Origin: an uncultured Acidobacteriota bacterium
GTDB taxonomy: Bacteria; Acidobacteriota; Vicinamibacteria; Vicinamibacterales; UBA2999
Direction: 5' to 3'
DNA length: 64,000 nt
Assembly (NCBI GenBank): GCA_963734635.1
Contig: CAVTIA010000002.1
Span: 486,406-550,405 of the forward strand
A model generated the notes under the pieces. The model did not search any database, was not told where the DNA came from, and saw only the letters and a list, made by a program, of their open reading frames with translations. Within the stretch, counting starts at the first letter, position 1; every line of letters starts with the position of its first letter. Positions 1,506 through 63,935 of this stretch are shown here, piece by piece. A program made the position numbers and the translations under genes.

Positions 1506-1540
1506 TGCCGCCAAATGCGCCTGGAATCCGTCAGTTCGCG

Positions 1541-2131: not shown

Positions 2132-2133
2132 TC

Positions 2134-29418: not shown

Positions 29419-29468
29419 TGGTGAAGTCGCGGTCCAGTTTACAATGCAACGCTCACCAGGGAGGCGCA

Positions 29469-30941
29469 GTGATCGGACAGACACCACAGACGATCGACAG
29501 CGTGTTGCCGCGTGCACCACAGCGCAGCCTCTTCGTGAGTACGGGAATTCCCTTAGTCGTCGGCGTTGTCATCGCTCTCCTGCCTGTTCCTGCGAACCTC
29601 TCTCCCGAGGCGTGGCGGTATTTCGCGCTCTTTTCCGCCGTGATCATCGGCATCATCACGGAACCGATTCCACCCGCAGCGGTGGGGCTCACCGGTGTCG
29701 TCCTGGCTGCGGCGCTCGGCCTCGTCGGTGCCACACCCGCCGCATCGGCAGGCTGGGCGCTCAGCGGATTCGGCAACACCACGGTCTGGCTGATCTTCGC
29801 TGCTTACATGTTCGCGCTCGGCTACGCGCAGACCGGCCTCGGCAAGCGAATCGCGCTGCAGCTCATTCGCGTGCTGGGATCGAAGACGCTGGGGCTCGCC
29901 TACGCCATCACGCTCGCCGACTTGCTGCTCGCGCCGTTCACCCCGTCGATCACGGCGCGCTCCGGCGGCACCATCTACCCGGTCATCCGCAGCATCCCGG
30001 AGCTGTACGGCTCACGCGCATACGACCCCAGCGCACGAAAGATCGGGTCGTATCTCCTTTACACGGCCACCTCGACGACGCTGATCACCGGCAGCATGTT
30101 CATCACGGCGCTTGCGCCGAACGCGCTGGCGATTGGCTTCATCGCCGAGGGCACGGGACTGCAGATCTCCTGGTGGGACTGGTTCCGCGGATTCGCGCCG
30201 GTGGGGTTCGTCCTGCTCGCGATCGTTCCCGCGCTCCTCTATCGCATCTATCCTCCGGAAATCAGGGAAGCGCCAGAGGCGCCGCGGTGGGCGGCCGCGG
30301 AGCTGAGCGCGATGGGACCGATCAGCCGCAGGGAGATCCTCCTGCTCGTTCTCGTCACCCTCGCCCTCATGCTGTGGATCGGCGCCGCCGAACACATCGA
30401 GCCGGCCATGGCGGCCATTCTCGTCACGGTACTGATGGTGATGCTCCGCGTTGTCTCGTGGAACGACGTGATCGGCTACTCGCAGGCGTGGAACGTGCTG
30501 ATCTGGTTTGCCACGCTCGTGACGCTGGCCGGCGGCCTGTCAGAGACGAAGTTCGTCCCCTGGCTCGCCGACTCGATTGCCCCCTCGCTCAGCCAGCTCG
30601 GCACCACCGCCAGCATCGTCGCGGTGGTCGCGGTCTTCTACGTGCTGCACTACTTTTTCGCGAGCATCACCGCGCACGCGGCAACGCTGTTTCCGGTGTT
30701 TCTCGGCATCGCGCTGACCATTCCCGCCGTGTCGCCGATGCAATGGGCGCTGCTCCTCGCCTACTCGCTCGGACTGATGGGCATCCTGACGCCGTACGGA
30801 GGCGGGCACCAGGCCATCTACTACGGCAGCGGGTTCATCCCGAGGCGCGACTTCTGGATATTGGGACTGATCCTGGGCGTGGTGTATTTCGTGGTTTACC
30901 TGGTTGTCATCATCCCGTGGCTTCGGTTCTTGGGGTTCTAG
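29469..30941 (+). CDS. DASS/SLC13-type anion (di/tricarboxylate) permease
   Basis: About 490 aa and very hydrophobic, with the two-fold repeat architecture of this family. GTG start at 29469, shortly after a GGAGG. It is divergent from the PrpF-like gene. Family assignment is by overall pattern only. Confidence 0.7.
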   Translation: MIGQTPQTIDSVLPRAPQRSLFVSTGIPLVVGVVIALLPVPANLSPEAWRYFALFSAVIIGIITEPIPPAAVGLTGVVLAAALGLVGATPAASAGWALSGFGNTTVWLIFAAYMFALGYAQTGLGKRIALQLIRVLGSKTLGLAYAITLADLLLAPFTPSITARSGGTIYPVIRSIPELYGSRAYDPSARKIGSYLLYTATSTTLITGSMFITALAPNALAIGFIAEGTGLQISWWDWFRGFAPVGFVLLAIVPALLYRIYPPEIREAPEAPRWAAAELSAMGPISRREILLLVLVTLALMLWIGAAEHIEPAMAAILVTVLMVMLRVVSWNDVIGYSQAWNVLIWFATLVTLAGGLSETKFVPWLADSIAPSLSQLGTTASIVAVVAVFYVLHYFFASITAHAATLFPVFLGIALTIPAVSPMQWALLLAYSLGLMGILTPYGGGHQAIYYGSGFIPRRDFWILGLILGVVYFVVYLVVIIPWLRFLGF

Positions 30942-30950
30942 TGCGCGGGC

Positions 30951-31010
30951 TGCGCAGGCTGAAGCCTGCGCACCACGACGTTGTACGTAGTGTCCCGGCT
31001 TCAGCCGGAC
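30951..31010. repeat. REP-like stem-loops: one family B copy plus one inverted family A copy
   Basis: tgcgcaggctgaagcctgcgca (30951-30972) and gtacgtagtgtcccggcttcagccggac (30983-31010). Confidence 0.85.
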
Positions 31011-31101
31011 CTTCACGGCATACAATGAGCGCGCCGGCCCGGCACATCAATCCTGGAAGTTTTCGATGCATTTGTCATCACGTTGAGATGAGGAGGACAT
31101 C

Positions 31102-31587
31102 GTGCGTTACACATCGATCCTGATGCTGATCTATTTCGTCGGTGCGGCAGTCGCGCTGGACGCACAGGCCCTGACCCGGCGCGACATGTCCCTGCAGATC
31201 GCGCGCGCGTTGGCCGACGCCTCCATTGCGTGCGCCAAGCAGGATGGGTATGACGTATCGGTCGCCGTCGTCGACCGCGCGGGCGATCTCACGCTCCTCA
31301 TGCGCGGAGACCAGGCGAATCCCCACAATGCCGAGCTCGCGCGGCGAAAGGCGTATACCGCCCGGACCTATGGCGTCTCGACGATGGAATTCCGGAATCG
31401 CACCAACGGAACCGACCTCGCAGGACAGCGTGAACTGGTGGACATTATTCCGCTCGGTGGCGGCTTGCCTGTGATGGCCGGCAACGACCGTATCGGCGGG
31501 CTTGGATTGAGCGGAGCGCCGACGCAGGAAGCCGACGACAAGTGCGCCGCGCAGGCGCTCAAGAGTGTCGCGGCGACGTTGAAATAA
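31102..31587 (+). CDS. GlcG/HbpS-like (DUF336) heme-binding family protein, secreted
   Basis: VSVAVVDRAGDLTLLMRGD...AELARRKAYTA...PLGGGLPV...IGGLGLSGAPTQEADDKCA. AGGAGG lies 5 nt before the GTG start. Confidence 0.75.
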   Translation: MRYTSILMLIYFVGAAVALDAQALTRRDMSLQIARALADASIACAKQDGYDVSVAVVDRAGDLTLLMRGDQANPHNAELARRKAYTARTYGVSTMEFRNRTNGTDLAGQRELVDIIPLGGGLPVMAGNDRIGGLGLSGAPTQEADDKCAAQALKSVAATLK

Positions 31588-31690: not shown

Positions 31691-32635
31691 TTACGGCTTA
31701 CACCGGTCCGTTCCCAGTCCACCGCCCTCAGCAGTACCCACGTCGCGGTACACCTTGTGGCAGTTCGCGCACGCGTCGTTCAACTTCTCGGACATTCCGC
31801 TCAGCGCATCCTGATTGCGGCTCTGGGACGTCTTGTAAAGCTCGCGTGACAGAGCGACGAGCTCCTGGGTGAATTTCTGGTAATCCGCGTTCTGAATGGG
31901 CACCGGCCTCCCGTTCTCGCAGCGCCGGCCCGGCACCATGAACATGGGCGTCGTCTCGATGAGCGCGAGCGCCGCCTGGTCCACCGCCTGCCAGCCGTAG
32001 TACACGGTGGCTCCCCACAGGACGTAGTCGAACGGCACAGGGTTTACCGGTTTTGTCGCACCCGGGTCCTTGACTTGCGTGTTGAAGATGATGTTCGCGT
32101 TCGGAAAGGTCACACCCCGCATGAACTGCGCGAGATTCGCCGTTGAAGTGAGCGTCACTCCTCCTGCACCTGCAGTCGTTGCCGCAGGGCGCGAGGCTGG
32201 GAAGGTGGTCGTCTTCAACCCAGCGTCGGCAAGCGCCGTCGAGCCCGCTTTGAAGTTGCCCACCTGAAGCATGTATGCGGCGAGATCAATCGTCTGCGGC
32301 CGCATGAGGGAACCCGGAGCTTGCAGCGGCATCGTGTTCTGAATCTTGTCCGCCAGCTCCGCCAACGAACGTCCGCCCCACGCGGCGACAAATCCCTCGC
32401 CAGCGAGCATCGGCCCGATGACACCCTCGAGCTTCTCGCCGTGACATGCAGCGCACTGCGCCTTGTACAGCGCCGCTCCGCGCTGCGCCTGTTCTGCTGA
32501 GTAAACGCCGTCTGCCACCGTTCGTGCCTGCTGCGCATGGCCGGTGAGCGCGAACGCAGCCCCGAGCGCAAAGGCGGCCAGCGAGCGCCGCCGAGCGTGC
32601 CGCGAGACGATTGCCCGCCCCGTTACATTACGCAT
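31691..32635 (-). CDS. secreted di-heme c-type cytochrome
   Basis: Two CxxCH motifs: CAACHGEKLEG near the N-terminus and CANCHKVY near the C-terminus. A signal-like N-terminus is present. Confidence 0.75.
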   Translation of the reverse strand: MRNVTGRAIVSRHARRRSLAAFALGAAFALTGHAQQARTVADGVYSAEQAQRGAALYKAQCAACHGEKLEGVIGPMLAGEGFVAAWGGRSLAELADKIQNTMPLQAPGSLMRPQTIDLAAYMLQVGNFKAGSTALADAGLKTTTFPASRPAATTAGAGGVTLTSTANLAQFMRGVTFPNANIIFNTQVKDPGATKPVNPVPFDYVLWGATVYYGWQAVDQAALALIETTPMFMVPGRRCENGRPVPIQNADYQKFTQELVALSRELYKTSQSRNQDALSGMSEKLNDACANCHKVYRDVGTAEGGGLGTDRCKP

Positions 32636-33028: not shown

Positions 33029-36000
33029 ATGTGTACGAGTTCGGTCAGACGGTTCGTACGTGCGGCGTTCGTGATCGCATTCATAGCGCTACCGGTCCTG
33101 GTTTCCGCCCAGGACGCGACGATTACGGGGACGGTCACCGATACGACAGGCGGGGTGCTGCCTGGCGTCACGGTCACCGTGGTGAATGAAGCATCGGGCA
33201 TCACCTTCGAGTCGGTCACCGACGAACGCGGCGTGTTCCGGATGCCGGCGCGCATCGGGAACTACCGCGTCACGGCGGCGCTGACCGGCTTCACCGATGT
33301 GGTACGGACCGGGCTACCGGTCGCTGTCGGCCAGGTCGTGACGATCAACCTGCAGATGGCGCCGTCAGGACTCCAGGAATCGGTCACGGTGACAGGCGAG
33401 GCGCCGCTGCTCGACGTCAGCAGCTCGAGCCTCGGCACCAACATCTCGCAGGCCCAGATGGAGGAGCTGCCGCTCAACGGCCGGAACTGGCAGGACCTCG
33501 GGATGCTGGCGCTCGGAAGCCGCGTCAACGGGGTCGGCACCAACGAAATCGCGGCCGAAGGAAGCGGCACGTATCAGGTCAACGTCGACGGACAGCAGGT
33601 GACGTACTGGGGCGGAGGCCTGGGGAACGTGCAGCCGCGCTTCAGCCGCGATGCGATTGCGGAGTTCGAGTTCATCGCCAACCGGTTCGACGCCACCCAG
33701 GGCCGTTCGCAGGGGATCCAGATCAACGCCGTGACCAAGGGCGGCACCAACAACTACCTGGGAACCTTTGGCGGGTATTTCCGGGACGACAGCCTGAACG
33801 CCGCCGACAAGATCGTCAACCGGGTGCTGCCGTACTCGAATCAGCAGCTCAGCACGACGCATGGCGGCCCGATTCTGCAGGACAGGTTTCACTACTTCGC
33901 CAACTACGAGTACGAGCGCGAGCCATGGACTACGGTGTTCACGACGCCCTACTCCGCGTTCAACCTGGAATTCACGGAGCCGCGAAAAGAGCACAAGTCG
34001 GGCCTGCGGCTCGACTATCAGTTCAACCCGAGCCTGAGAGCGACGGTTCGCGGATCGATGTGGCAGAACGACCAGAGTCTCGACCAGGCGTTCTCGGCAA
34101 CCGGCACCAACCACCCCTCGTTCCTCGTCCAGACGTATCGCGACAGCGATCAGATCCAGCTCGCGCTGACGCAGGTGCTGGGAAGCAGGGCCGTGAACGA
34201 CTTCAAGAGCGGATACGTCGGGATTCGAAACCGCGAGTCCTCACGCGTACCGTGGGAGAACCACCCCGCCGCCCGGACCGACGGCATCACGAACGGCTCG
34301 CCGATCATCACAATGAACGGCTTCAGGTTCGGGCCGCCTGGAAGCGTTCCGCAGGAGATCCAGGAAGGCAAGTGGTCGTTCCGGAACGACTTCACGGTTT
34401 CGGTGAACAAAGCTCGGACGCCACGACTTCAAGATTGGCGGCGAGTACATCAAGAACTCGTGGTGGCTGATGATCTGCCGCGACTGCACCGGCATCTACG
34501 ATGCGCAAGGCGGGACGGCGGCGGATCAGGCCGCGATTCAGGCCGCCCTGCCCCGGCTCTTCCCGACGTGGGACAGTCCCGATACCTGGAACCTGAACGC
34601 GCTGAACCCGATCGTCCGGCGTTACACGCAGGGGATCGGCGACTTCACGTTTTCGGTGGACCGCCATGTGGCGGCCGGCTGGATCCAGGACGACTGGCAG
34701 GTGTCGTCGAACCTGACGCTCAATCTCGGTGTGCGCTATGACCTGGCGCTCAACGGCTTCGGGGAGGATTACGACTTCCAGCCGTGGGTCAATGCCGGAC
34801 GGTCGAACGACACGAACAACATCCAGCCTCGATTCGGTTTCGCCTACCGGCTTGGCGAGCAGACCGTGCTTCGGGGCGGCATCGGGAAGTACTTCGGCGA
34901 AGTCACGGATCAGTCGGCACACGGCACCGTGTCGTGGCGGAACATTGTCGGCGTCGAGATCCTGAACGACGGGCGTCCGGATTTTGCGAGCAACCCCTTC
35001 AACGGACCGCAGCCGACCTACGACCAACTGGTTCTGCGGACGTGCTGGGATCAGAAGGTGAACCAGGGGGGCGCGCGGCCCGGGTGCATCCGCCGCACGG
35101 TCGGCAACAACCTCTCCAGCCCCAATTCGCAGTACCCGCATTCCTGGCAGGGATCGATTGGCTTCCAGCGGCAGTTGAGCAACTCGATGGCCGTGGAGGC
35201 CGACTACGTCTACTGGGCGAGCGCGCACAACGTCATCGGGAACGTCAACATCAACCAGTCGTTCAACGCCGCTACGGGACTGCCGAATGCGACCACCAAC
35301 GTTGCACTGCTGCCGTTCCCCGAGTGGGGCAACGTCGCCATGCGGAACCACACGCTGGGCTACGATTCCAAGAACCACTCGGTGCAGGTGGGACTCACCA
35401 AGCGTTTGAGCAACCGCTGGCAGGCGTCGGCCAGCTACCTGTGGGTACGCGATTTCGCCAGGGACACTCCCCCGCTGCTGCCGGACCTGCCTGGCATTCC
35501 AGAGGCGCGAGACTGCACGTACCCGGTTACGTGGACGGCTGACCGCTCGCGATGGGTCTGCGATGTGCCGGTGAACTTCCGCGCCTTCGGGGTTCCCATC
35601 TACGACGAGGAATGGTACGTGACGGGACATCAGGTCCACCGCGCGACCTTCAACGCTATATACGAGCTGCCGTACGGCATGCAGGTCAGCGGGCTGTATT
35701 TCTACGGCGACAACGGAAAGGAGACGACGACGTCCGGCGTCGACGTACTTGCCGTCGGCGGCGTTGTCGCGAATCGCACACGAAGAGATCGCTCGGTCAT
35801 CCCGCGTTACAACTTCGAACGGAAGGACCTGCACCGCGTGGACGTGCGGTTCTCACGGCGCTTCTCCCTCAACGGCCGATTCTCGTTCGAACCGCTCGTC
35901 GAGGTGTTCAACCTCTTCAACCGGGCCAACTTCAACACGTGGAACCTGAACGAGAGCAACAGCAACTTCGGACAGCCGCAGCAGGGCGCTGGCGGCAACA

Positions 36001-36065
36001 GCGGCGCCGGTGGAACCGCGTTCCAGCCGCGCGTCGTCCAGCTCGGCTTTAGGGCCACGTTCTAA
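33029..36065 (+). pseudogene. TonB-dependent receptor with N-terminal carboxypeptidase-regulatory-like domain (copy 1), single frameshift at an AAA run (34409-34411)
   Basis: ITGTVTDTTGGVLPGVTVTVVNEASG..., the plug region LPLNGRNWQDL and the C-terminal barrel end QLGFRATF. ORF 33029..34741 and ORF 34470..36065 join as ...FTVSVNK/LGRHDFKIGGEY if one A is removed. Confidence 0.85.
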
Positions 36066-39117: not shown

Positions 39118-40179
39118 TCAGGGTCGCAGCGACGCGACGTAGGCGGAAATGGCGATCAGATCGTCCTCGGTCAGCTTCTCCACCGCCGGCTTCATCGCCT
39201 TTGCCATGTCGCCGTTCCGCGCGCCCACCTGGAAGTCGTAGAGCTGGCGTGCCATGTACCCGGGATGTCGTCCGGCAAGCGGCGGGGCGACTGGCGTGCC
39301 GCGCATGTCAGGGCCATGGCACGTGCCGCACGCCTGCGTCTTGCCGTTGCCGCCGGTCATTACGAGGTTCTGGCCCGCCTTGATGCTGCCGGGCGGCACG
39401 TACGCGGCCATGCCGACGCGCGGATTGCGCAGCATGTTCGCCTGGTAGCTGTCCTCGGGCATCTCCACGATGCGCCTGCCGATCGGTTCGGTCTCGTTCC
39501 CCTCGGCTTTCAGGAACAGGCCGTTGATCGTGGCGGTGAAGCGAGGCACCGTCTCGGATTCGACGACGCGGATCCACGGCTTGAACGTGAGCGAGGCGAA
39601 GTACTCCGCAGCCTGCTGCGCCTCCTGCGGCGTCAGGTTACGGGCCATGGCGGCCATTTCCCACGCGTTCGCCTTGTTGATGTCTGCGCTCTTCCGCTTG
39701 CCGTTTGCCATTTCCGTCAGCTGGCGCAGAAAGTAGTCGACGCGCAGGCCCGCCACCGGACCGTTCTGCATCAGCCCCTGGCCGTTGGGATAGTGGCAGA
39801 TCGCGCAGGCACGGAAGCGCTGCGATTCCTTCCCGTGCGCGACGATGTCCGGCATCGGCGGGTGATCTTCGGGATACCAGTCGGCTGGCTTGTACGGCGA
39901 GGTGATCTCGGCGACGCTGAAGTACTTGCCGGTGCCCGGAATCGTCAGCTTCTCACCCGTGGTGTCGGCCGGCATCCCACCCGGCCGATCGCAGTCGCGC
40001 GGCGTGCTGCCCGGGCACCGGTTCGACCAGTCCTGCGGCGCCGGCGGCACCGTCTTGTAACCGTAGGCCCACAGCGGGAACCCGGGCTCGAGCGCGAGAA
40101 ACCGGACCCCCTGTGCCAGCAGCCCGGTTCCACTTGCAAGGGCGACGACGAAAACCAGCAGACCAGCGCGCTTCGCCAT
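39118..40179 (-). CDS. secreted di-heme c-type cytochrome
   Basis: CAICHYPNGQG and CGTCHGPDMRG (two CxxCH motifs). Signal peptide MAKRAGLLVFVVALASGTGLLAQG. It lies 13 nt downstream of the cupin gene. Confidence 0.8.
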   Translation of the reverse strand: MAKRAGLLVFVVALASGTGLLAQGVRFLALEPGFPLWAYGYKTVPPAPQDWSNRCPGSTPRDCDRPGGMPADTTGEKLTIPGTGKYFSVAEITSPYKPADWYPEDHPPMPDIVAHGKESQRFRACAICHYPNGQGLMQNGPVAGLRVDYFLRQLTEMANGKRKSADINKANAWEMAAMARNLTPQEAQQAAEYFASLTFKPWIRVVESETVPRFTATINGLFLKAEGNETEPIGRRIVEMPEDSYQANMLRNPRVGMAAYVPPGSIKAGQNLVMTGGNGKTQACGTCHGPDMRGTPVAPPLAGRHPGYMARQLYDFQVGARNGDMAKAMKPAVEKLTEDDLIAISAYVASLRP

Positions 40180-40192
40180 GGGTGTCAGTCTA

Positions 40193-40699
40193 TTACTGCT
40201 TCACACCCCGCGGGAATTCGAACGTCACCATGTAGAGCTCGGGGCTGAAGCCGGTCACCTGGTGCGGCACGCCTTCCGGGATCAGGAGGAAATCGCCCTT
40301 CGTAACCTTGTGGACCGTCCCCCCCTCGATTCTCCGTTCCACCTGATCGCCCTTCTTCGTCTCGACGATCTTGCCTCCGGTCGTGATTTCGCCGTTGCCG
40401 TCGATAATCGCCCACACTTCCCCTTCGGTCGCGTGCGCCGCTGCTCTTTGCGGCGGCCTCCGGCGATCCACCGCCATTCGATACGCGACCCCGCTCGGCG
40501 AGGTCGCCTCGGGACGCTCGACGACGGTGATGTTGGCGTAGGCCACTTCCTGAAGCTTGGCTCGGTGGGCGGCGACGCTGGCCGCCGAGAGGAAATACGC
40601 CTCCCTCGGATTGTTGTTGATGCTCTGCGGACCCTGCTGGCTCGAGGCAACCGAGGCAAGTGTGATGACGAGTGCGGCTGTGACAGCAATGATTCTCAT
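40193..40699 (-). CDS. secreted cupin-domain protein
   Basis: Signal peptide MRIIAVTAALVITLASVASSQ. Cupin beta-barrel text GEVWAIIDGNGEITTGG...VHKVTKGDFLLIPEGVPHQV. Confidence 0.7.
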   Translation of the reverse strand: MRIIAVTAALVITLASVASSQQGPQSINNNPREAYFLSAASVAAHRAKLQEVAYANITVVERPEATSPSGVAYRMAVDRRRPPQRAAAHATEGEVWAIIDGNGEITTGGKIVETKKGDQVERRIEGGTVHKVTKGDFLLIPEGVPHQVTGFSPELYMVTFEFPRGVKQ

Positions 40700-40714
40700 A
40701 TCGATGCTCCTCTG

Positions 40715-40802
40715 CCGGGTCCAAAAGGACGCGGCCGATGTCGCGCGTGCGCGTTGCCGGGTCCTAAGGACGCGGCCTACGGGTTCCAAAGGACCCGGCT
40801 AC
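40715..40802. repeat. REP-like stem-loops, family C, three copies
   Basis: ccgggtccaaaaggacgcggcc, ccgggtcctaaggacgcggcctac and gggttccaaaggacccggctac, lying between paralog 1 and the cupin gene. The last copy overlaps the paralog 1 stop codon. Confidence 0.85.
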
Positions 40803-41776
40803 CTGGGGGGCGTGACGCCCCTGAACCACTTGAAACCGAGCTTGTGCAGCTCGGCGATGGTGTGACCGACGCCCTCGTTACAGGTGTTCTCCCACACCTC
40901 GCGAGCGTACGGGTCGGGATCCACTGTTACGGTGTTGCGCCAGGCGTACTTCCCGGTTGTGTTGTCCGTACCGCCGGTTCCGGCGCGTCTCATCGGGTAG
41001 TTCATCTTCCACGGCCGCGTGTAGATGGTCGGATCTTCCACCGTGAGCTCGTAGTCGATGGTGTTCGCGTCGGCCATCCTGAAGCGCTCGGTCATGCGCG
41101 TGTTTTCGCTGTAGATATTGCCGACGCTGTCGAGCCAATGTTTGCCGTTCAGCCCGGTGACTTCGACGACGAGCGTGTCGCCGTCCCAACGGCCTCGGGA
41201 GTTGCCGCGGAAGAATTTCGCCTGGCCGCCGACATGCGGACGCCCATCGGTCGCAATCACGCGGTGCACCCGGGCGGTCACCATGATCACGCGACCTGGC
41301 TGCTGGATGATTTCCCCGACCGCGCCCCTCGGCCCGATCATCGTGAAGCAGTACGACGCGGGGTCAGCGTAGAGGCGCTGGCCGCTTTCCCCTGGCCATC
41401 CACGAGAGAGTCCGGCGCGATTTTCGTTGCGCCGCGCCAGTGCCCACGCGTTGTACGGGATTTTTCCGTCCGGCGGATCGGATACGAAGCTTTCCTGGGG
41501 CGGCGTGGTGACATCCACGTACCCGTGCTCTTCGATGTCATCGCCTCCCGCTCCGCCCGGTCCGCCCCATGTGCCCTGGAGGTCGGGTACTCCGTCAGGA
41601 GTGCGCGCGGGACGGTACGGCGGCAACGTTGCCTTGTGCGCTGCCCATGTCCTGGCCATCGGCAACCTTGGTGTATTCAGATCGAATCGTGCCTGCGCTG
41701 CGGCAGGACGCAAGGACAGAACCTGCACCGCGAGCGCGGCGACGACAAGAGCAACGGCTGCGAACATGTTTCGCAT
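40799..41776 (-). CDS. uncharacterised secreted protein, 'RTxDG-PD-LQG-W ... RGRW-GDTLVV ... EDP-x-YTRPW' family, long subtype (paralog 1)
   Basis: Signal peptide MRNMFAAVALVVAALAVQVL. Motifs: ARTPDGVPDLQGTW, DGKIPYNAWA, RGRWDGDTLVVEV, WLDSVGNIYSE and TVEDPTIYTRPWKM. I recognise no family. Confidence 0.7.
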   Translation of the reverse strand: MRNMFAAVALVVAALAVQVLSLRPAAAQARFDLNTPRLPMARTWAAHKATLPPYRPARTPDGVPDLQGTWGGPGGAGGDDIEEHGYVDVTTPPQESFVSDPPDGKIPYNAWALARRNENRAGLSRGWPGESGQRLYADPASYCFTMIGPRGAVGEIIQQPGRVIMVTARVHRVIATDGRPHVGGQAKFFRGNSRGRWDGDTLVVEVTGLNGKHWLDSVGNIYSENTRMTERFRMADANTIDYELTVEDPTIYTRPWKMNYPMRRAGTGGTDNTTGKYAWRNTVTVDPDPYAREVWENTCNEGVGHTIAELHKLGFKWFRGVTPPR

Positions 41777-41789
41777 GTTCCAATACCAG

Positions 41790-42608
41790 TTAGTTGAACG
41801 GAATGCCATTCGGTTTGTCCCACGCGTCCTCGAGCAGGTAGGAGAGACATTCATATTCGAGGAGCTCGGCGTTCGCGTCCCGATGTCGATACAAAGGCAT
41901 GCTGATCTTCCAGGGCCTCGTGAATACCTTTGGATCCTCGATCGTGGCCTCGTAGAGCATGTGGTTGGGCCCTGTCGGCGTGTACCGCTCGACGACGTGC
42001 AAGGCCTCGCTGTGAAAGTTGCCTGCACGATCGAGCCACGTCTGATCCGTGAAATGCATGACGTCGACGACCAGCGTATTGCCATCGAAGCGCGCCCGCG
42101 AGTCTCCCATGAACCATTCGATGGGACCCTTCGGATGCGGATTGCCGTTCATGTAGGCAAAGCGAACCGCGCCCAGATACTCGTAGAGAAAGGTGACCTT
42201 GTCGCGCTGCTGCACGATTTGAAACGGGTGCGGCATGTAGGTGATTCGCGGGACACCGGGCAGAAAGCATTTGCTCTCCGTATCGAGCGTGGCGCGGTTC
42301 TGGAAATTCTCCTGCCTCTTCTTGAGGGCCGCGGGTTGATAGGGGATCGCGCCGCCCTCGACAACACCGCGGCCCGCCGGCACGCCGAGGCGCGCGTTGT
42401 GATCTTCGAGATCCCACGCGGCTGTGTTGAGGACCTGCCAGATCCCTTGAAGATCAGGTTGTCCGTCTCGCGTGCGCGGCGGGTTGAACGGCGCGGGCGT
42501 GGCGGTTTGCGCAGCGCCTGTGCCCGTGTCGAGCCAGAGCGACGCGATAACCGTCAGAGCCGCAATTGAGGGAACGAGCCAGCGAGAACGGCGAAGTGTG
42601 GACGACAT
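41790..42608 (-). CDS. uncharacterised secreted protein, same family, short subtype (paralog 2)
   Basis: PRTRDGQPDLQGIWQVLNTAAW, IPYQPAALKKRQENF, KCFLPGVPR, GDSRARFDGNTLVVDV, TWLDRAGNFHSEALHVVERY, TIEDPKVFTRPWKISMP and LEYEC. Confidence 0.7.
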   Translation of the reverse strand: MSSTLRRSRWLVPSIAALTVIASLWLDTGTGAAQTATPAPFNPPRTRDGQPDLQGIWQVLNTAAWDLEDHNARLGVPAGRGVVEGGAIPYQPAALKKRQENFQNRATLDTESKCFLPGVPRITYMPHPFQIVQQRDKVTFLYEYLGAVRFAYMNGNPHPKGPIEWFMGDSRARFDGNTLVVDVMHFTDQTWLDRAGNFHSEALHVVERYTPTGPNHMLYEATIEDPKVFTRPWKISMPLYRHRDANAELLEYECLSYLLEDAWDKPNGIPFN

Positions 42609-42616
42609 GATGCGAG

Positions 42617-43072
42617 CTATCGTCCGATGGTGATCGACTCGAGCTGCTCGCGTGCCGGTGTGAGATCGCTCTGGCCAGCGGGAAACTTGTTCAGCTCGAA
42701 CAGAAACGCGAGGAGGTCAGCATACTCCTGAGGAGAGAGCGTCTTGGGGCTTCCGACGGGCATGGTGCTCGCCATGGTTCCGTAAAGCTCCCACGCCGTG
42801 CGGCCATTCCACTTTTTCTGGAACGGCTCCCCCGCCACCGCCGGCGCCTCGGCATCGCCCTCTCGCTCGAGCGATTCGCCAGGGATGACCGGTACGGCCG
42901 CATGTCCCTGTCCGTTGTCCAGATGACACAGCACGCAGCGCTTTCTGTACTGTGCGCGCCCACGCGCGGCTTGATCGGTCGTGTACACGCCGTCCATGAC
43001 GGAACGTTTGCCAGGGGCCTGCGCTGCGCGTGCGGTACCGCCAACGGCAGCGGCCGCGACGAGGATCATCAC
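42617..43072 (-). CDS. secreted mono-heme c-type cytochrome
   Basis: CVLCHLDNGQG is the single CxxCH. The hydrophobic leader is VMILVAAAAVGG. The start (GTG at 43072 or ATG at 43069) is uncertain. Confidence 0.65.
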   Translation of the reverse strand: MMILVAAAAVGGTARAAQAPGKRSVMDGVYTTDQAARGRAQYRKRCVLCHLDNGQGHAAVPVIPGESLEREGDAEAPAVAGEPFQKKWNGRTAWELYGTMASTMPVGSPKTLSPQEYADLLAFLFELNKFPAGQSDLTPAREQLESITIGR

Positions 43073-43095
43073 AACAACGACACAGCCCGATTTTG

Positions 43096-43186
43096 CCGGG
43101 TCCAAAAGGACCCGGCCTACTTGCGAAAGAACCCGGCCGGCGCGACGCTCCCAATCACGCGTAGGGCGGGTCCTTTCGGACCCGCC
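43096..43186. repeat. REP-like stem-loops: a family C copy (43096-43120), a degenerate C copy, and a family D copy (43152-43186)
   Basis: ccgggtccaaaaggacccggcctac ... caatcacgcgtagggcgggtcctttcggacccgcc. Confidence 0.85.
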
Positions 43187-43200
43187 TCGACGATTGCGAA

Positions 43201-45084
43201 TCACCGACTGGCCGTCCGACTGGCGGTCTGCGTGGTCGGCGACGGCCACGGGTTCCCGGGCGGCCCGTACTGATAGAACGCGCCCAGGGTCGTGATCTTG
43301 TCCATATCCGGATAGAGCACGCCAATCGCCGGCATCTCGCGGCTTCCGCGCGGCGAATACCAGATGGCGCCTTCACGCGTCACCTGCACCTTGGGCGTGT
43401 CGGCGTCGAACTGCGGCTTCGGATAGAACGCCCACGTCTGGTTGCGCGGGTTGAACTTGCTGATGAGCGCCACGCGATCCGGTGTCGGAGAATCCGCGAA
43501 CCACATGTTGCCTTCCGGGTCAGGATTCACGTCGTACGGCTGCGCCGTCCAGAGCGGCACCGAGTACTCGGTGAAGCGACCCGTCGTCTGGTCCAGCTTT
43601 GCGAGCTTGCCCGGCCGGCGACCCTGATTCCAGATGGCCGCCCAGATGTTGTTCTGCGCGTCCACGTTCAGCCGGCGAATGTGGCCCGGGAACGTCAGCG
43701 GCGCAAACTCGGTCCACTGCTCGTTGATCGTGTCGAACTTGGCGATCTTCCCGGAGTTCCACAGCGCGATCCAGATGTTGTCGTTGCGGTCGGCAATCAC
43801 GCCGTAGGGAACGGCCCCGCGATCCGAAATCGGGTACACGGTGACCTTGCCTGTGGCGCGTTCCCACTTGCTGATCGCGCCGCCCATGATCCAGCCGACG
43901 TACAGGTTGCTCTTGGAGTCGAGCGCCATCGACTGCATCCACTTCATCTCGTTGCGGATGACGTTGTCGGGATCGCCGGGAATCTGGTGATCCCACTTTT
44001 CGGTCTTGGGATTGAAGCCGAGGATCCGCTTCTTCCCGGTCGGCTGGACCCCGGAATGCTCGGGCGCCCACACGATGCCGAACCGATCGATGGTGAGGTC
44101 GTGGTTACCGAGCTTCGCGCCATCGGGATAGAGGTAATCTTTCTGCTCGCCCGTGCGCGGATTCAGCTTCACCAGCCGGTGCGGGTATCCGCGGTCGGTC
44201 AGCCACACGTTGCCGTCGGCATCGAACCGGACGTCCTGCCCCCACCGGATGCCGCGTCCCTGCTTGGCGAATTCAGGCGAGCTGCTGCCGGTTCCCGGCG
44301 GATCGATCGGCAGGTAATACTCGATGAACATCGCCTTGCTGAGCGCCGCCTCGTCGAGCGGAACGTCTTTTTCCGCGCGGACGAAGCGCGGCTTGGCGTC
44401 GGGACCAAAGTTCTTCGTTACGTACGCAATGAATTCCTCGCGCTCCTTCCTGGCGAACGGAAACCACTGCACGCGTCCCGAGAGCGCCCCTTCGGTGTAC
44501 GACCGCGCATCGCGCTCAGGGAGTTCGGCGCCCATCATGTGGCCGAGGCGCGCGCGCCACACGTCTTCACTCGCCGGCCTGGCGGAGATGAAGTTCTCGT
44601 GGTGGCAACGCATGCAGCCCTGCTCGATCACCTCGAGACCGGGGCCAGCCGGATAGATTTCCGAATAGCGCGCGAACGTCACGCCATTCTGCGGAGCAGG
44701 CTCGACACCCTGGCCCGCCCGCATGGCGACACTCAGCTTGGCGTTCTCACCGGCCCGCAGCGCGACCTTCTGCACCTCGGACTCGAGCCCCTTCGCCTTG
44801 ACGCGCACTTCGTAATTGCCCGGGAAAAGGGCAAGGGATCGAAATGCGCCAGCGTTGGTGAACACCATATACGTGACGTTCTTGTCGGTGTTGCGGATGT
44901 ACACCTGCGCAGCCCTGAAGGCCTGCGGCGCGGTCACATTACCCGACAGACGCGCCAGCCCGGCAATCTCGCCGCGCTGCTGGGCAACAACAGTTGTGGC
45001 GCCCCAGCTGATGCTCAGGACATATACGGCACACAGGGCCAGGACCCCGACGATCACCCCGGTCAGAAACCGACGGCTGCTCAT
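43201..45084 (-). CDS. secreted three-part protein: carboxypeptidase-regulatory-like domain, a CxxCH heme-binding segment, and a Vgb/NHL-like beta-propeller
   Basis: The N-terminal VYIRNTDKNVTYMVFTNAGAFRSLALFPGNYEVRVKAKG is CarboxypepD_reg-like. EQGCMRCHHENF follows. Then come repeated blades: DADGNVWLTD, DRFGIVWAPE, DSKSNLYVG, DRNDNIWIAL, DAQNNIWAAI and DPEGNMWFAD. Intact 627-aa ORF with GGAGGA before the ATG. Confidence 0.7.
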   Translation of the reverse strand: MSSRRFLTGVIVGVLALCAVYVLSISWGATTVVAQQRGEIAGLARLSGNVTAPQAFRAAQVYIRNTDKNVTYMVFTNAGAFRSLALFPGNYEVRVKAKGLESEVQKVALRAGENAKLSVAMRAGQGVEPAPQNGVTFARYSEIYPAGPGLEVIEQGCMRCHHENFISARPASEDVWRARLGHMMGAELPERDARSYTEGALSGRVQWFPFARKEREEFIAYVTKNFGPDAKPRFVRAEKDVPLDEAALSKAMFIEYYLPIDPPGTGSSSPEFAKQGRGIRWGQDVRFDADGNVWLTDRGYPHRLVKLNPRTGEQKDYLYPDGAKLGNHDLTIDRFGIVWAPEHSGVQPTGKKRILGFNPKTEKWDHQIPGDPDNVIRNEMKWMQSMALDSKSNLYVGWIMGGAISKWERATGKVTVYPISDRGAVPYGVIADRNDNIWIALWNSGKIAKFDTINEQWTEFAPLTFPGHIRRLNVDAQNNIWAAIWNQGRRPGKLAKLDQTTGRFTEYSVPLWTAQPYDVNPDPEGNMWFADSPTPDRVALISKFNPRNQTWAFYPKPQFDADTPKVQVTREGAIWYSPRGSREMPAIGVLYPDMDKITTLGAFYQYGPPGNPWPSPTTQTASRTASR

Positions 45085-45202: not shown

Positions 45203-48124
45203 CTACCAGACGAACCGGATCGCCAGCTCGGCCTGCTGCCGTGGATACACGGTATTCAGCGTGCCAAACGCATTCGACGTCGCATTCATCTGCCACGGCG
45301 TAGCCCCTACGCCGAGGCTGTCGGTGCCAAACAGGTTGAGTACCTGAAGGATGAGTTCGGCGCGGCGTGCGCCGCCCAAGCTCACCTGCTTGCTCACCCG
45401 CAGATCGAAGCGCTGGAACTCGTCGGTCATGAGCTGACTTCTCGCGATCGCCGCCAGCCCCCGTGATGCGCGCCAGGTGTTCACCAGTGCCAGCATCTCG
45501 GCATCGTTGCCGCGGTTGAAGACGTTCTTCGTCGTCCCCGGCACGTAGTCGGTCACCGCGCCGTCGGCGTTCAGATCGATGCCGGCGCGCGCGGGGAACG
45601 GCCGTGACGACCGGTAGTTCCACACCGCCCCCACGGTGATGTCGAACGGCAGCATCACCGCGCCGCTCGCCACCAGCGTGTGGCGCCGATCCTGACTGCC
45701 GTAGCCGTCGTCATACTCCGGATGGTAGAAGTCGACGACGGTGGCCCCCCCTGCCCCCTGAGTCCTCGTCCTTCGCCAGCGTGTAGGACACGAGATACTG
45801 CGTCCGGCCCGAAAAGCGCTTGTCGAGCCGCAGATAGAGCGCGCGATAGTCGCTTTCGCCCGCCGCGCGGTATTCGAGGATGTTCCCCCACGTCGGCAGC
45901 GGGCGCCGCCCGGTTATTGGATCGGGGGTATTGATGTTGGCAATCTGGTTCGCCTTCGTCTCCCTTGCTGAACACACCGTCCACGTGAATCGCCAGATTC
46001 GGTCGCAGCTCATGCGACAGCCCCACGTTGAGCGATGTCGACTCTGGCTGTTCAATCTCGTCGTCCGTGGTGCTGACGTTCGGCGTCGCTGACACCGTGA
46101 CGAAGTCTGCGGCGACAGTCCGCCATACGGATCCGGATACGACGGATTCCGGATGTTGACCTGGCTTTGGAGCAGCGCGTTCACCTCGTTGCGCAGGGTG
46201 TTGGCGAAGACGTTGCCGTAGTACTTGCCGGTGGCGAGGCGCGCCACCGTGCGCCCGTCGCTTCGCACGTCCCACGCCAATCCGAACCGCGGCCCCCAGT
46301 TGTCGTTGTCCGCACGCGAGTCCGGGTCGATGAGCTCGGCCAGCCGTGGCCGGCCGTCGAAGGTGATGTGATTGTTGAACGCCCGGTGCAGGTTCTCGTA
46401 GCGGAGCCCGACATCGAGCGTCAGGTTCGGCAGGACGCGCCACTCGTCCTGCACGTATGTCTGAATCCAGTCGGCCCGGAGATGCCGCGGCAGCGGCGGG
46501 AACGACGCGGTGAACTGAATCGGGGTTCGCAGGTTGCGAATCGACGCCGCGCTGCCGTCGAAGAACTGATCGGTGCCGAACGTCCAGGTCCCGATGTTGT
46601 GTGTCGACTCCTCATTCGAGCGGAAGCGCAGGAAGGCACCGCCCGCCTTCAACGTGTGTCCGCCCATACTGAGCGTGAGGTCGTCCGAGATGTCCCACCG
46701 CTCAGTCCTGTTGTTGCTGTAGCCGGTCGATCCCCACGTCAGGCTCGGGAAGACGTACACCGCGCCAGGGGAGCCCGCGATGGTGTAGGGCTCGAAGCGT
46801 TCGGCCGGGAACTCGCCGCGCTGGCTGGCAGGCCACCGCGGAATGCCGGGCGGGCTCCCGAGGTTCTCCAGGTGCGACGGCGGAAGCTGCGACCGGACCT
46901 CGTTCAGCACCCGTGAGCTGATCACCCACGTGTGCGCCGCCAGCAGCGAGTCGCGCGGCGAGTCCGTATCGGTGCCGGTATTGCCGGCCAGGCTCCCACC
47001 GCACTCCTCACAGAACGTGTACTCCTTGTCCCACAGATACCGCAGGAACACGTTCTGCTCGTTGTTCACCTGGAAGTCGCCCCGCAGCAGCAACTGCCGC
47101 CGCTCGTACCCGGCCGGGAGAGTTCCCCTCGACCGCCGAGTAGAACTGCGGCTGGCCGGTGCGCACCGTGACCGTCTTCGGCTCCTTCGTCCGCTCCAAC
47201 GCCGCGAAGAAATGGATCCGGTCCTGCACGATTGGGCCGCCGAACGCGCCGCCGTACTGATTGCGCCGGTACTCCGGCTTCGGGTCGCCACGGGTGTCGT
47301 GCTGCTCCTTCTCGAACTTGTCCATCGCGTTCAGGCTGGTGTCGCGGAAGAACTCGAAGACCTCCCCGTGGAACTCGTTCGTGCCGCTCTTGGTCGCCGT
47401 CAGCACCACGCCGCCGACCGCGCTGTACTGCGCCGACGAGCCGCTGATGTTCACGCGGAACTCGCGGATCCCCGACTGCGGCACCTCGAGGAATTCCTGC
47501 CCCGAGTTGTAGATCTGGTTCTGGCCGCCGTCCACGTACGAGGTCGTCAGGTTGGCGTTGGCGCCCCCGGCGCCGATCGTCGGCCGCGCTCGCCGCGTGC
47601 CGGTTGGCAGCTGCGTCCCAGGCATCAGCAGCGCCAGCGACCCGGCCTGACGGTTGGCAATCGGCAGCATCTCGATCTGTTCCTGCGTCACCACGCTCGC
47701 CACTTCGGTCTGTCGTCGTTTCGACGACGGGGGACTGCGCGGTGACGATCAACGCCTCCTGGATGCCTTGAAGCGACATCGTGAGGTTCTGCTGCACCGA
47801 GAGCCCGATGGTCAGCGCAAGGTTGGTGACTTCTGCCGTTGCAAAGCCACCAAGCTCGGCTGTCAAGCTGTAGCGGCCGGGCTGCAGTCCCGCCAGGCGA
47901 TACTGGCCGTCTGTTTCGGTGACGGTGGTCCGGACCGTGCCGGACTCGACGTTGCGCAGGGTGACGGTGACCCCGGGTAGAACGCCGCCTTGCGCGTCCG
48001 CGATCACACCGGTAATCACTGCGCTGGCTTCACCCTGAGCGGCGGCAGCAGCCGCCGTTCCCAATACGGAGACCAAGAGAAGGGTCGCAATCCGAAGGTA
48101 CCGACGTCCCGAGACAGCTGTCAT
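45203..48124 (-). pseudogene. TonB-dependent receptor with carboxypeptidase-regulatory-like domain (copy 2), about 5 frame changes
   Basis: Start ATG at 48124 after GGAGG. The pieces are MTAVSGRRYLRIATLLLVSVLG..ITGVIADAQGGVLPGVTVTLRNVESG (frame of ORF 47066..48961), VASVVTQEQIEMLPIANRQ..TKSGTNEFHGEVFEFFRD (ORF 47008..47703), LRGDFQVNNEQN...NPSYPDPYGGLSPQ (ORF 45711..47291), FVTVSATPNV..HVDGVFSKG (ORF 45655..46443), back to KANQIANINTPDP..YTLAKDEDSG, and then VVDFYHPEYDD...AELAIRFVW (ORF 45203..45673). Confidence 0.85.
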
Positions 48125-48923: not shown

Positions 48924-50036
48924 TTAAGTAGAGCCTCGCCGGTACACCTTCGAGAATCCATTGCGGGCGTTCGTCACGGCGAACGTCCCGTCTTCCAGTG
49001 CTGACAGCTTGATCCAATACGCGCGGCCGTTGTGCGCCGGCGGCGGTGGCACGTTCGGACCGGGCTGCGGCAGCGGCATCGGCGCAACCGGCATCACGTC
49101 CTGCTGCTCGTCGATGCCGTTGGCGATGAACATACCGGGCGCGGTGTACTCCTGCCCGCTCAGCAGCGAGAAGTGCATCTGCCACAGGTCCTCGAATCCG
49201 GGCGACGAGTAGAGCGCTCTCATCACAGCGGGCAGCCCACCCTTGCGCGTGCCGTTGTTCATGATCGCCACGCGCGGCGCCACCGCGTGGACGAACAGCA
49301 CCGAGTTCGATGTGTCCTGCCCGTGATGCAGACCCAGTAGCGCGTCAACCGTGCCGAGGCGGTTCATCGGGCACACGAGCTCGAATTCCTTGTCGGTTGT
49401 GAGATCCCCCAGGTGCAGCGCGCGGAACCTGCCAAACGTGATGTAGCTGCCCACCGACTCGGGATCCTCGGGGATGGCATTCACGGGTGCCGGTCCGCTT
49501 CCGCACAACGGGTTGGCCCTGCCGGCATCAGGGAGCGGCGTGCGAATGACAGCACCGTTCGACGTCACGATGCGCACACCGATACCCGCAATCGGAATCG
49601 TGTCTCCAGGTTTGACGACCGTATGCTTCGCCTTCGCATACAGTTCTGGGTACACGCTCTGCAGGTACTTTTCCGTCGCCTCGTTCTTCTGCACGGTCGG
49701 TCCGTGATCGATGAAGTGGCGAATCGGGATGCGCGAGGCGAGTTCGGCAAGGCCGCCGTAGTGATCGCCGTGCCAGTGGGTGGTGATCAGGTGATCGATC
49801 TGACTGAGGCCGGCGTCTTTCGCGGCGTCAAAGATACGTCCCGCATCCCGAGCCGCGCCCATGCCGCCGTTGCCCGTGTCGATCAGAAGCGACTGACCGG
49901 ACGGAGACACGAAGAGCGTGGCGTTGCCACCCTCCACGTCGACGACATAGATGTCCAGCGTCTTCCCGCTGCGCGTCTGCGCCGCCACAAGCGCGGCACT
50001 CACGACGATCGTCACGAGACATAAAAATCGACGCAT
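48924..50036 (-). CDS. secreted MBL-fold metallo-hydrolase (copy 2, different subfamily from 36245..37243)
   Basis: Signal peptide MRRFLCLVTIVVSAALVAAQ. LDIYVVDVEGGNATLFVSPSGQSLLIDTG...LITTHWHGDHYGG (HxHxDH). The start was set at the ATG at 50036. Confidence 0.75.
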   Translation of the reverse strand: MRRFLCLVTIVVSAALVAAQTRSGKTLDIYVVDVEGGNATLFVSPSGQSLLIDTGNGGMGAARDAGRIFDAAKDAGLSQIDHLITTHWHGDHYGGLAELASRIPIRHFIDHGPTVQKNEATEKYLQSVYPELYAKAKHTVVKPGDTIPIAGIGVRIVTSNGAVIRTPLPDAGRANPLCGSGPAPVNAIPEDPESVGSYITFGRFRALHLGDLTTDKEFELVCPMNRLGTVDALLGLHHGQDTSNSVLFVHAVAPRVAIMNNGTRKGGLPAVMRALYSSPGFEDLWQMHFSLLSGQEYTAPGMFIANGIDEQQDVMPVAPMPLPQPGPNVPPPPAHNGRAYWIKLSALEDGTFAVTNARNGFSKVYRRGST

Positions 50037-50088
50037 CCTCGTAGTCCTTGAGCGTGGAGGTGAACGTCCTTCTGGACCCGGCGCGCTC

Positions 50089-50490
50089 CTATTGGCCCGG
50101 TCCGTTGATCTGCTGACCGGCAACCAGGAAGTTCCGTCCGTCAGCTGTCTTGACCGTCCGCCCGGCCATCGTCGTCGTGCCGTTTTTCGCGCGGAACCCT
50201 TCCACCGTCAACTCCGTCCCGATCGCAAGGTCCGTCTTTCGAACGCCGGCGCGCAGCAATGCCGTGGCGCTGCCCGCTTCGACGGCCCAGGTCTCGGTTT
50301 TTCCGTCTGGCCTCTTGACGTCGACGTGCAGCCAGCCGTGCGGGTTGACCCATTCGAGCTTGCTCAATGTCCCCTTCACGGTCACCGGCTTCTCGATGTC
50401 GAATTCCGCTGCGAACGAGTGATGCGCCGAGGCGGGCGCTGCGGCCCAGCACAACCCGACGCCCATAACCGCTGCAAGAAACTTCCTCAT
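50089..50490 (-). CDS. small secreted protein, DUF6152-like (mature N-terminus HHSF)
   Basis: The signal peptide ends ...APASA/HHSFAAEFD. The protein is 133 aa and beta-rich. The family name is from memory and should be verified. Confidence 0.55.
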   Translation of the reverse strand: MRKFLAAVMGVGLCWAAAPASAHHSFAAEFDIEKPVTVKGTLSKLEWVNPHGWLHVDVKRPDGKTETWAVEAGSATALLRAGVRKTDLAIGTELTVEGFRAKNGTTTMAGRTVKTADGRNFLVAGQQINGPGQ

Positions 50491-52245: not shown

Positions 52246-52290
52246 GAGAGGCTTGCCATGTCTACGTCTCCTTCGAACTAGCCGGTACCA

Positions 52291-52358
52291 GTCCGGAAGC
52301 CTGAAGGCTTCCGGCTACCAGCGTAGCAGGCTAGCCGGAGACCTTCAGGTCTCCGGCT
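52291..52358. repeat. REP-like stem-loops, variant forms (GTCCGGAAGCC-TGAA-GGCTTCCGGCTAC and CCGGAGACC-TTCA-GGTCTCCGG)
   Basis: Read directly, between receptor 3 and paralog 4. Confidence 0.8.
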
Positions 52359-63751: not shown

Positions 63752-63835
63752 ACGAATCTCCTCCCTTTGACCGAATCGCGACGTACTGGCCAGCAGAAAC
63801 CGCCTGGCTGGGCTCCGTGTACCACATAAAGGGTT

Positions 63836-63867
63836 GTCAAGCAAAGGCGCCCTGTGGTGTGCTTGAC
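63836..63867. promoter_or_regulatory. inverted repeat GTCAAGCA-N16-TGCTTGAC in the divergent region upstream of receptor 4
   Basis: Read directly. The left arm contains TTGACA on the minus strand. It is a candidate operator/promoter element. Confidence 0.35.
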
Positions 63868-63935
63868 TCGTGGTATTCTCGGCGCCGAATATCGTAGGGT
63901 ACTTCCGCTGAGATCGTCTGAAAACGGAGGCCATA

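Follow-up and report, generated by a model that had tools for sequence, protein, structure and literature searches.

Paired exported proteins of an unannotated family in an acidobacterial genome and their regular DUF6152 partner

A stretch of 64,000 nucleotides from the genome of an uncultured bacterium of the Acidobacteriota (Vicinamibacterales, UBA2999; assembly GCA_963734635.1, contig CAVTIA010000002.1, positions 486,406 to 550,405), referred to below as the window, encodes four paralogous exported proteins, P1 to P4, in two clusters, A and B. Judged from their sequences, these are Sec-exported periplasmic proteins of a family that is very large and unannotated and comprises a short subtype (alpha) and a long subtype (beta). 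There is no curated family or solved structure for them and no paper that describes them, and their probable fold class is an already known one. The two subtypes are typically encoded side by side and together with a small exported protein of the family DUF6152. Our tentative preference is for the view that alpha, beta and DUF6152 constitute a periplasmic ligand-handling unit, a carrier or presenter, in redox-linked uptake or catabolism.

The resulting cassette consists of alpha, beta and DUF6152, optionally accompanied by pairs of DUF6644 genes, c-type cytochromes, pyrroloquinoline quinone (PQQ) dehydrogenases and TonB-dependent receptors. It connects three families of so far unassigned function (alpha/beta, DUF6152 and DUF6644) in a single periplasmic system that can be tested, and the cultured hosts Methylomonas methanica R-45363 and Derxia lacustris HL-12 make it accessible to experiments.

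Family size and spread

Searches of P1 and P2 against Pfam and NCBIfam at E-values up to 1 returned no match, every curated model of lipocalins, fatty-acid-binding proteins (FABPs) and other calycins included. Among PDB sequences, neither phmmer nor a profile built from 45 sequences found a relative, and only noise was recovered (a phage coat protein and aurone synthase, E of about 0.2). The initial annotation of the window, which was made from the sequence alone, had left the family unassigned, and these empty searches bear it out. Long or multidomain relatives yielded only sub-threshold hints of SnoaL/NTF2 domains in Pfam, and the homologs are all named 'hypothetical protein' in their source databases.

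The family is nonetheless one of the larger ones without a curated model or solved relative. A word-indexed search returned at least 8000 homologs of P2, 3055 homologs of P1 were found, and clustering of the family at 50% identity gives no fewer than 10,733 clusters in an exhaustive search at E up to 1e-3. At least 593 loci from four phyla or classes were found in species-representative genomes, several metagenome-assembled genomes (MAGs) supplying more than one of them. The family is abundant in soil Acidobacteriota (Vicinamibacterales, Bryobacterales, Terriglobia and Holophagales) and extends to Gammaproteobacteria (M. methanica R-45363, Methylococcales, Pseudomonadales and Rariloculaceae), with methanotrophs and marine members among them, to Betaproteobacteria with D. 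lacustris, and to Gemmatimonadota.

The alpha/beta pair

Neighbourhood statistics were derived from 82 loci and the comparison of orthogroups from 30 strict cassettes. A second gene of the family adjoins the first on the same strand in 79% of the loci. Proteins encoded at position 1 of a cassette match the position-1 proteins of other genomes with a median of 277 bits and position-2 proteins match each other with 187 bits, compared to 79 bits between the partners within a pair. The position-1 group is the short alpha subtype, to which P2 and P3 belong, and the position-2 group is the long beta subtype with P1 and P4. The best BLAST matches of P2 are position-1 cassette proteins and the best match of P1 is a position-2 protein with 57% identity. 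On these alignment scores, alpha and beta are ancient paralogous orthogroups. They probably act together. Single open reading frames (ORFs) with two full family domains are present in four loci from Bryobacteraceae and Gammaproteobacteria (L036, L037, L073 and L083) and in one entry of the representative library (P0242). Such fusions of alpha and beta argue for a physical unit of the two subtypes, which probably is a heterodimer.

DUF6152, the regular partner

Apart from the partner subtype, the most constant companion is DUF6152. In 76% of the 82 loci it is encoded no more than 2.5 kb from a gene of the family, mostly on the same strand and most commonly in the order alpha, beta, DUF6152. The window holds one such gene immediately after P3, which had been overlooked in the initial annotation; its product matches the DUF6152 model (PF19649) with 114.1 bits at a cut-off of 27. 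The mature protein starts with an invariant H-H-[AS]-F..E-F-D directly after a predicted A-x-A cleavage site (HHSF in the window copy), a second invariant motif reads W-x-N-P-H, and the predicted fold is an oligonucleotide/oligosaccharide-binding (OB) fold, for which OB-fold matches were found in the PDB. A histidine that becomes the first mature residue upon signal peptide cleavage acts as a metal chelator in lytic polysaccharide monooxygenases, CopC, YcnI and DUF4198 (PMC10952591, PMC12537917, PMC8424229). From its sequence, the His-His tip of DUF6152 looks like an undescribed metal site of this N-terminal-histidine type, and DUF6152 probably holds a metal ion. If the tip does bind metal, this would bear on metal handling or substrate oxidation between the two membranes of diderm bacteria.

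Two identifications of DUF6152 with described proteins were rejected. It gave no match to CopC at E-values up to 10, adopts a predicted OB fold and has only the histidine as first mature residue in common with CopC. The small lanthanide cargo protein reported in a preprint is described without a conserved domain (bioRxiv 10.64898/2026.07.10.737718). No paper on DUF6152, DUF6644 or PF19649 came up in the literature searched.

Twelve ORFs of about 340-360 aa from marine Gammaproteobacteria are fusions of DUF6152 with a barrel domain of the alpha/beta family, often organized in arrays of four to seven copies. They keep the N-terminal His-His and lack the PRTxDGxPD arm of the alpha/beta proteins (loci L009, L039, L042 and L083; for example 13022..14047 in L042). 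These genuine fusion proteins caused the iterated DUF6152 hidden Markov model to drift from 119 to 308 hits, and the model was rebuilt from stand-alone members.

Predicted fold and conserved residues

A structural model of P2 was made with AlphaFold (AF2). It reached a predicted local distance difference test score (pLDDT) of 71.6, with 80-97 in the core blocks, and a predicted template modelling score (pTM) of 0.70. It has nine strands; the N-terminal one is separated by a short helical segment from the other eight, which are antiparallel. The top matches of a Foldseek comparison with the PDB were all calycins, namely a secretory abundant heat-soluble (SAHS) protein, CRABP2, FABPs, a bile-acid-binding protein and nitrophorin 7, at marginal scores (E 1e-3 to 1e-2, target-normalised TM scores of 0.5-0.6).

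An independent sequence feature fits this fold class. When conservation was scored across 45 sequences of both subtypes, W57 and R241 proved invariant and G55 at least 90% conserved, and all three residues are invariant in P1-P4. In the P2 model, G55-x-W57 sits on the first strand (55-59) and R241 on the last (233-241). A G-x-W motif on the first strand combined with a basic residue on the last is what we take to be the classical calycin signature from Flower's work. The model thus points to a calycin (FABP-like) beta-barrel as the probable fold of both subtypes, and to small-molecule binding as the probable property. The barrel is flanked on either side by an invariant cysteine (C114 and C254), and a disulfide between the two probably staples it, as would fit a periplasmic protein. 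Polar residues that are invariant in both subtypes are H70, R149, D193, E207, R208, Y219, D225, R241 and E251. The signal peptides of P1-P3 are of the Sec type and end in A-A-(A)-Q or P-A-Q; no lipobox cysteine is present in any of the three.

The four copies in the window

The initial annotation had described four paralogs in the window. All are present, on the minus strand, with the qualification that P3 and P4 are frameshifted (Table 1), and the lengths given for these two as well as the signal peptide said to be common to all four hold only when the frameshifts are read through. In P4, the signal-peptide-like segment and the PRT motif are in different frames; P3 aligns over its full length with the other paralogs once its frame is corrected. 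The conserved motifs that had been listed are all found in all four frame-corrected copies, the alignment of which contains 41 invariant columns. The description of the short subtype as ending at YEC had to be given up, as six more residues follow in P3 and 18 in P2. P4 carries the beta-type C-terminal motif W-E-x-x-C-x-E-G. P2 and P3 align with about 290 bits (54-57% identity), P1 and P4 with 145 bits (34%), and P1 and P2 with 122 bits (36%). These scores are far above chance and, at the sequence level, leave no doubt that P1-P4 are homologous.

Frameshifts are also found in all four TonB-receptor genes of the window; across these genes, P3 and P4, there are 1 to 5 or more per gene. Long genes such as uvrA (1062 aa) have intact reading frames, as do all six genes of cluster A other than the receptor. 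Some of the frameshift sites coincide with homopolymer runs and most do not; the G+C content of the window is about 63%. The frameshifts in the receptor genes, P3 and P4 may reflect assembly error in multi-copy genes or real decay.

Table 1. Cassette genes, their neighbours and other features of the window
Feature	Coordinates	Strand	Remarks
P1	40799..41773	-	beta (long) subtype, intact, about 325 aa, signal peptide
P2	41790..42608	-	alpha (short) subtype, intact, 272 aa, Sec-type signal peptide
P3	50509..51277	-	alpha subtype, two ORFs owing to one frameshift near 50851
P4	51288..~52261	-	beta subtype, at least two frameshifts (near 51555; near 52040-52140)
TonB-dependent receptor, cluster A	45203..48124	-	CarboxypepD_reg + OMP_b-brl_4, three frame switches
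Propeller protein	43201..45084	-	CarboxypepD_reg + Vgb_lyase/SGL-like beta-propeller, 627 aa, one CXXCH
Monohaem cytochrome c	42617..43249	-	directly upstream of P2; Pfam Cytochrom_C E=1.3e-7
Small exported cupin	40193..40789	-	9 bp downstream of P1; Cupin_2 E=2e-8
Exported dihaem cytochrome c	39118..40179	-	final gene of cluster A; matches Cytochrom_C in two stretches, E=5e-14
TonB-dependent receptor, cluster B	52278..55276	-	directly upstream of P4; at least four frame switches
DUF6152 gene	50089..50490	-	18 bp downstream of P3; PF19649 E=3.4e-33
Exported metallo-beta-lactamase-fold protein	48924..50123	-	downstream of DUF6152; Lactamase_B E=1.6e-14
Further TonB-receptor gene	33029..36065	+	frameshifted
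Further TonB-receptor gene	60821..64000	-	frameshifted
Cytochrome c	31691..32635	-	314 aa, adjoins the receptor at 33029
ORF without Pfam match	28985..31123	+	712 aa

Gene order around the pairs

Cluster A reads TonB receptor, propeller protein, cytochrome c, P2, P1, cupin and dihaem cytochrome c. From the cytochrome c gene on, the genes are separated by gaps of 8-16 bp (P1 begins 16 bp past P2), and the ORFs of the propeller protein and of the cytochrome overlap. Cluster B consists of a TonB receptor, P4, P3, DUF6152 and the metallo-beta-lactamase-fold protein. Neither a PQQ dehydrogenase nor DUF6644 was found in the 64 kb.

The domains OMP_b-brl_4 (E=9e-56) and TonB_dep_Rec_b-barrel were detected in the receptor genes of the two clusters, each of which switches frame at least three times. 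In tblastn comparisons with the receptor of locus L001, the cluster A gene matches with 77-91% identity in three frames, and the matches of the cluster B gene are scattered over three frames. The propeller protein combines an N-terminal CarboxypepD_reg domain, a haem motif (CMRCH) and a six-bladed Vgb_lyase/SGL-like propeller. It is easily mistaken for a TonB receptor; this assignment was rejected in favour of a CarboxypepD_reg propeller haemoprotein.

The nearest syntenic relative of the window is the Acidobacteria MAG GCA_016213695.1. The gene order of cluster A recurs in L001 and its gene set in L085 and L087; the propeller protein is syntenic beside alpha/beta pairs in these three loci, and both cytochromes c are syntenic in L001. 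The small exported cupin recurs beside alpha/beta pairs in the same three loci as well as in L086 and L083, and genes for metallo-beta-lactamase-fold proteins recur close to cassettes.

Outside the two clusters, the C-terminal part of the 314-aa cytochrome c resembles cytochrome c', and similar cytochromes with a length of about 315 aa are encoded near cassettes in L001 and L084. The 712-aa ORF has no Pfam match at E up to 1e-3. It overlaps other ORFs and may not be a real gene in this high-GC sequence.

Neighbours across the loci

ORFs with a cytochrome c domain occur in 30 of the 82 loci. TonB receptors, PQQ dehydrogenases and DUF6644 are less frequent, and all three are denser close to the cassette than farther off. 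For the receptors, the density per 10 kb falls from 0.46 (0-2 kb) to 0.19 (2-5 kb) and 0.08 (5-10 kb), the value of the farthest zone being biased low by truncation of long genes at the locus edges. In 15 loci, at least one cassette gene has a receptor no farther than 2 kb away, in nine of them on the same strand. Receptors of 600 aa or more that lie upstream of the query gene on the same strand, at a distance of up to 3 kb, were found in 7 of the 82.

PQQ-type dehydrogenases are located within 2 kb in 12 loci, a number that rises to 18 when the distance is extended to 10 kb. Those near cassettes include eight-bladed enzymes in L009 (12563..14545), L041 (7729..9549), L049 (2408..4015), L059 (7548..9983) and others; fusion to cytochrome c occurs in some of them, and several match the NCBIfam model 'acido-empty-quinoprotein' below its cut-off. 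Their lanthanide-type D-x-D motif is mixed and reads WDYDG, WDFDS, WDYTA or WDYSS, or is missing.

DUF6644 is encoded within 2 kb of the cassette in 13 loci. The protein is hydrophobic, about 155 aa long and presumed to span the membrane four times, with an invariant histidine in a hydrophobic segment, and it has sub-threshold Pfam matches to DUF2214 (E=3e-5) and CopD (PF05425, E=3e-4). In these 13 loci, pairs of DUF6644 genes flank the cassette and are usually followed by a cytochrome c gene (for example L060 11776..12816 and L069 11784..12814). The gene order is DUF6152, alpha, beta, two DUF6644 genes and a cytochrome in Methylomonas. In Derxia, a classical receptor with plug and barrel precedes DUF6152, alpha, beta and two DUF6644 genes. 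Comparison of the Derxia receptor with NCBIfam gave no substrate clue, only generic siderophore and haem receptor models far below their cut-offs.

Recurring neighbours in Acidobacteria are small exported cupins, metallo-beta-lactamase-fold proteins, propeller haemoproteins, GSDH and tetrahaem-type cytochromes. In the gammaproteobacterial locus L083, genes for an Amidohydro_2 protein, a LigK/PcmE 4-carboxy-4-hydroxy-2-oxoadipate aldolase, which scores above the NCBIfam cut-offs, and a GFO/IDH/MocA oxidoreductase (363..2896) directly precede an array of fusion genes; together they are of the protocatechuate 4,5-cleavage pathway type. The arrays in L042 and L009 adjoin PQQ dehydrogenases, in L042 also a cytochrome c. 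A scan of 16 proteobacterial loci revealed no consistent Fur-box upstream of the cassettes, so iron regulation is unsupported.

Possible roles of the cassette

In the ligand-handling scenario, a small ligand would reach the periplasm, in some loci through the adjacent TonB-dependent receptor, and would be captured by the alpha/beta barrels. The barrels might then hold or present it at the putative metal site of DUF6152. Alternatively, the ligand might be presented to neighbouring redox enzymes, such as c-type cytochromes, PQQ or propeller dehydrogenases and cupins. On this view, the role of the barrels would be that of a carrier rather than a catalyst. Several observations weigh against this proposal. 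Cluster A of the window has no DUF6152, which indicates that the pair can work without it, and the P3 and P4 genes may have decayed into pseudogenes. Confidence is low for about a quarter of the P2 model, and no Foldseek match falls under E 1e-3. As far as conservation can tell, the invariant polar residues look more like a catalytic or cofactor site than like a diversifying ligand pocket, and cassette arrays inside catabolic clusters fit enzymes equally well as binding proteins.

An enzymatic role stays under consideration, given how many polar residues are invariant and that multi-copy arrays occur inside catabolic clusters. The cassette could encode a new periplasmic metalloenzyme that oxidises imported organic compounds, with DUF6152 as the N-terminal-histidine, copper-like centre, the barrels as substrate pocket, and the neighbouring c-type cytochromes and PQQ or propeller dehydrogenases as electron source. 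Histidine-brace proteins can work as oxygenases (PMC10952591, PMC7529816), the HH and NPH motifs of DUF6152 are invariant, cytochromes are common neighbours, the fusions of DUF6152 with the family join both parts in one chain, and four to seven diverged copies lie within catabolic clusters, beside LigK/PcmE in L083 and beside PQQ dehydrogenases in L042 and L009. Yet there is no known catalytic motif, OB and FABP-like folds are mostly binders and cluster A lacks DUF6152, which makes this possibility unlikely on balance. Its most specific form appears decidedly less probable still: an unrecognised metallo-oxidase or oxygenase with a histidine-brace-like centre on an OB fold and its substrate in the paired calycin barrels, which would draw electrons from c-type cytochromes and quinoprotein dehydrogenases and attack imported aromatic or recalcitrant compounds in soil and sea. 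Metal trafficking, most likely of copper, would assign a CopC/YcnI-like function to DUF6152 and a CopD-like function to the DUF6644 pairs, with import of the metal or a metallophore by the TonB receptor and the barrels as metallophore holders or clients. The position of the His-His motif at the cleavage site, the weak resemblance of DUF6644 to DUF2214 and CopD, its histidine in a presumed transmembrane segment, the operon order in Derxia and Methylomonas and the precedent of YcnI/YcnJ and CopC/CopD (PMC12362106, PMC8424229) are in line with such a function. It is quite unlikely all the same: DUF6644 accompanies only a minority of the cassettes and its CopD match is under the Pfam cut-off, metal chaperones are not usually encoded by many cassettes in one genome or in arrays of four to seven copies, and neither metal regulator or efflux genes nor a Fur-box pattern were seen.

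The initial annotation had proposed that the family always follows a CarboxypepD_reg TonB receptor and is its binding or processing partner. P4 does directly follow a receptor; P2 does not, since it follows the cytochrome c gene and the non-receptor propeller protein, and the receptor of cluster A lies two genes farther upstream. Dedicated SusD-like partners that bind or process the substrate of the adjacent receptor at or beneath the outer membrane would be in keeping with the position of both window clusters downstream of receptors, with the receptor that heads the Derxia operon and with the peak of receptor density within 2 kb of cassette genes. This local enrichment does not amount to a general rule, given that most loci have no receptor within 2 kb and that only some of the nearby receptors share the strand of the cassette. 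With four receptors in the 64 kb, adjacency is also cheap there, the genes are accompanied far more constantly by DUF6152 and the partner subtype, and the proteins, which have no lipobox, are soluble and periplasmic rather than surface lipoproteins, with a fold unrelated to that of SusD. A binding role is plausible; a dedicated partnership with receptors is improbable. Methanotrophs are known to make their own PQQ, and the presence of the cassette in Methylomonas is therefore at odds with a supply of cofactors to periplasmic quinoproteins. In such a supply, the ligand of the barrels would be scavenged PQQ, which is a planar tricarboxylate, or calcium or lanthanide ions would be passed on by the unit to apo-dehydrogenases after TonB-dependent import. 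PQQ-type dehydrogenases near some cassettes, among them the sub-threshold 'acido-empty-quinoprotein' matches, and the conserved Arg, Trp and Tyr of the barrel would suit it; TonB-dependent import of PQQ is established for PqqU (PMC12124388), and periplasmic lanthanide cargo proteins beside receptors have been proposed (bioRxiv 10.64898/2026.07.10.737718). With no PQQ dehydrogenase in the window, an inconsistent D-x-D motif among the neighbouring enzymes and multi-copy arrays that are unexpected for a cofactor carrier, cofactor supply is the most remote of the roles considered.

Comparison with known systems

Like SusD/RagB proteins, the alpha/beta proteins of the window are encoded downstream of a CarboxypepD_reg-type receptor, as they are in a minority of the loci elsewhere. 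SusD, however, is an all-helical surface lipoprotein of the tetratricopeptide-repeat (TPR) type, unlike the beta-rich, soluble alpha/beta proteins, and most of their cassettes have no nearby receptor. The initial annotation had named calycin and SusD-like folds for comparison; calycins came out as the best match, if a marginal one, and a SusD-like protein was excluded by the beta-rich model, the missing lipobox and the absence of a SusD/RagB match in Pfam.

The accessory parts of the cassette resemble the CopC/CopD and YcnI/YcnJ systems, in which a periplasmic protein with histidine as first mature residue occurs (PMC12362106, PMC8424229), also in the pairing with a four-transmembrane CopD-like membrane module, here DUF6644. 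The differences are that DUF6152 is predicted to have an OB fold, which is neither the CopC nor the YcnI fold, that the similarity between DUF6644 and CopD is sub-threshold and DUF6644 is absent from the window, and that the alpha/beta barrels have no counterpart in these systems.

A further parallel comes from lipid and quinone binding. YceI, a lipocalin-like protein that binds polyisoprenoids or quinones, is encoded with the cytochrome b561 YceJ. Common to both would be a calycin-like binder in the periplasm, encoded next to a small membrane protein that bears a histidine, in redox surroundings. YceI has no relation to the alpha/beta proteins by sequence or in Pfam, and it is a single protein with neither an alpha/beta pair nor an OB-fold partner.

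The alpha/beta proteins also resemble the calycins (FABP/CRABP, lipocalins including siderocalin, SAHS proteins and nitrophorins), which share the predicted topology, give the best fold matches in the PDB and have the G-x-W on the first and the Arg on the last strand. The conserved Arg and Tyr of the alpha/beta proteins recall the carboxylate-binding FABPs and siderocalin. In contrast to these proteins, the alpha/beta proteins match no Pfam calycin family and are, with 255-325 aa, about twice as big as a FABP. They bear a PRTxDGxPD N-terminal arm, an E-[DE]-H loop and a presumably disulfide-stapled C-terminal tail, and they form an obligatory pair with an OB-fold partner.

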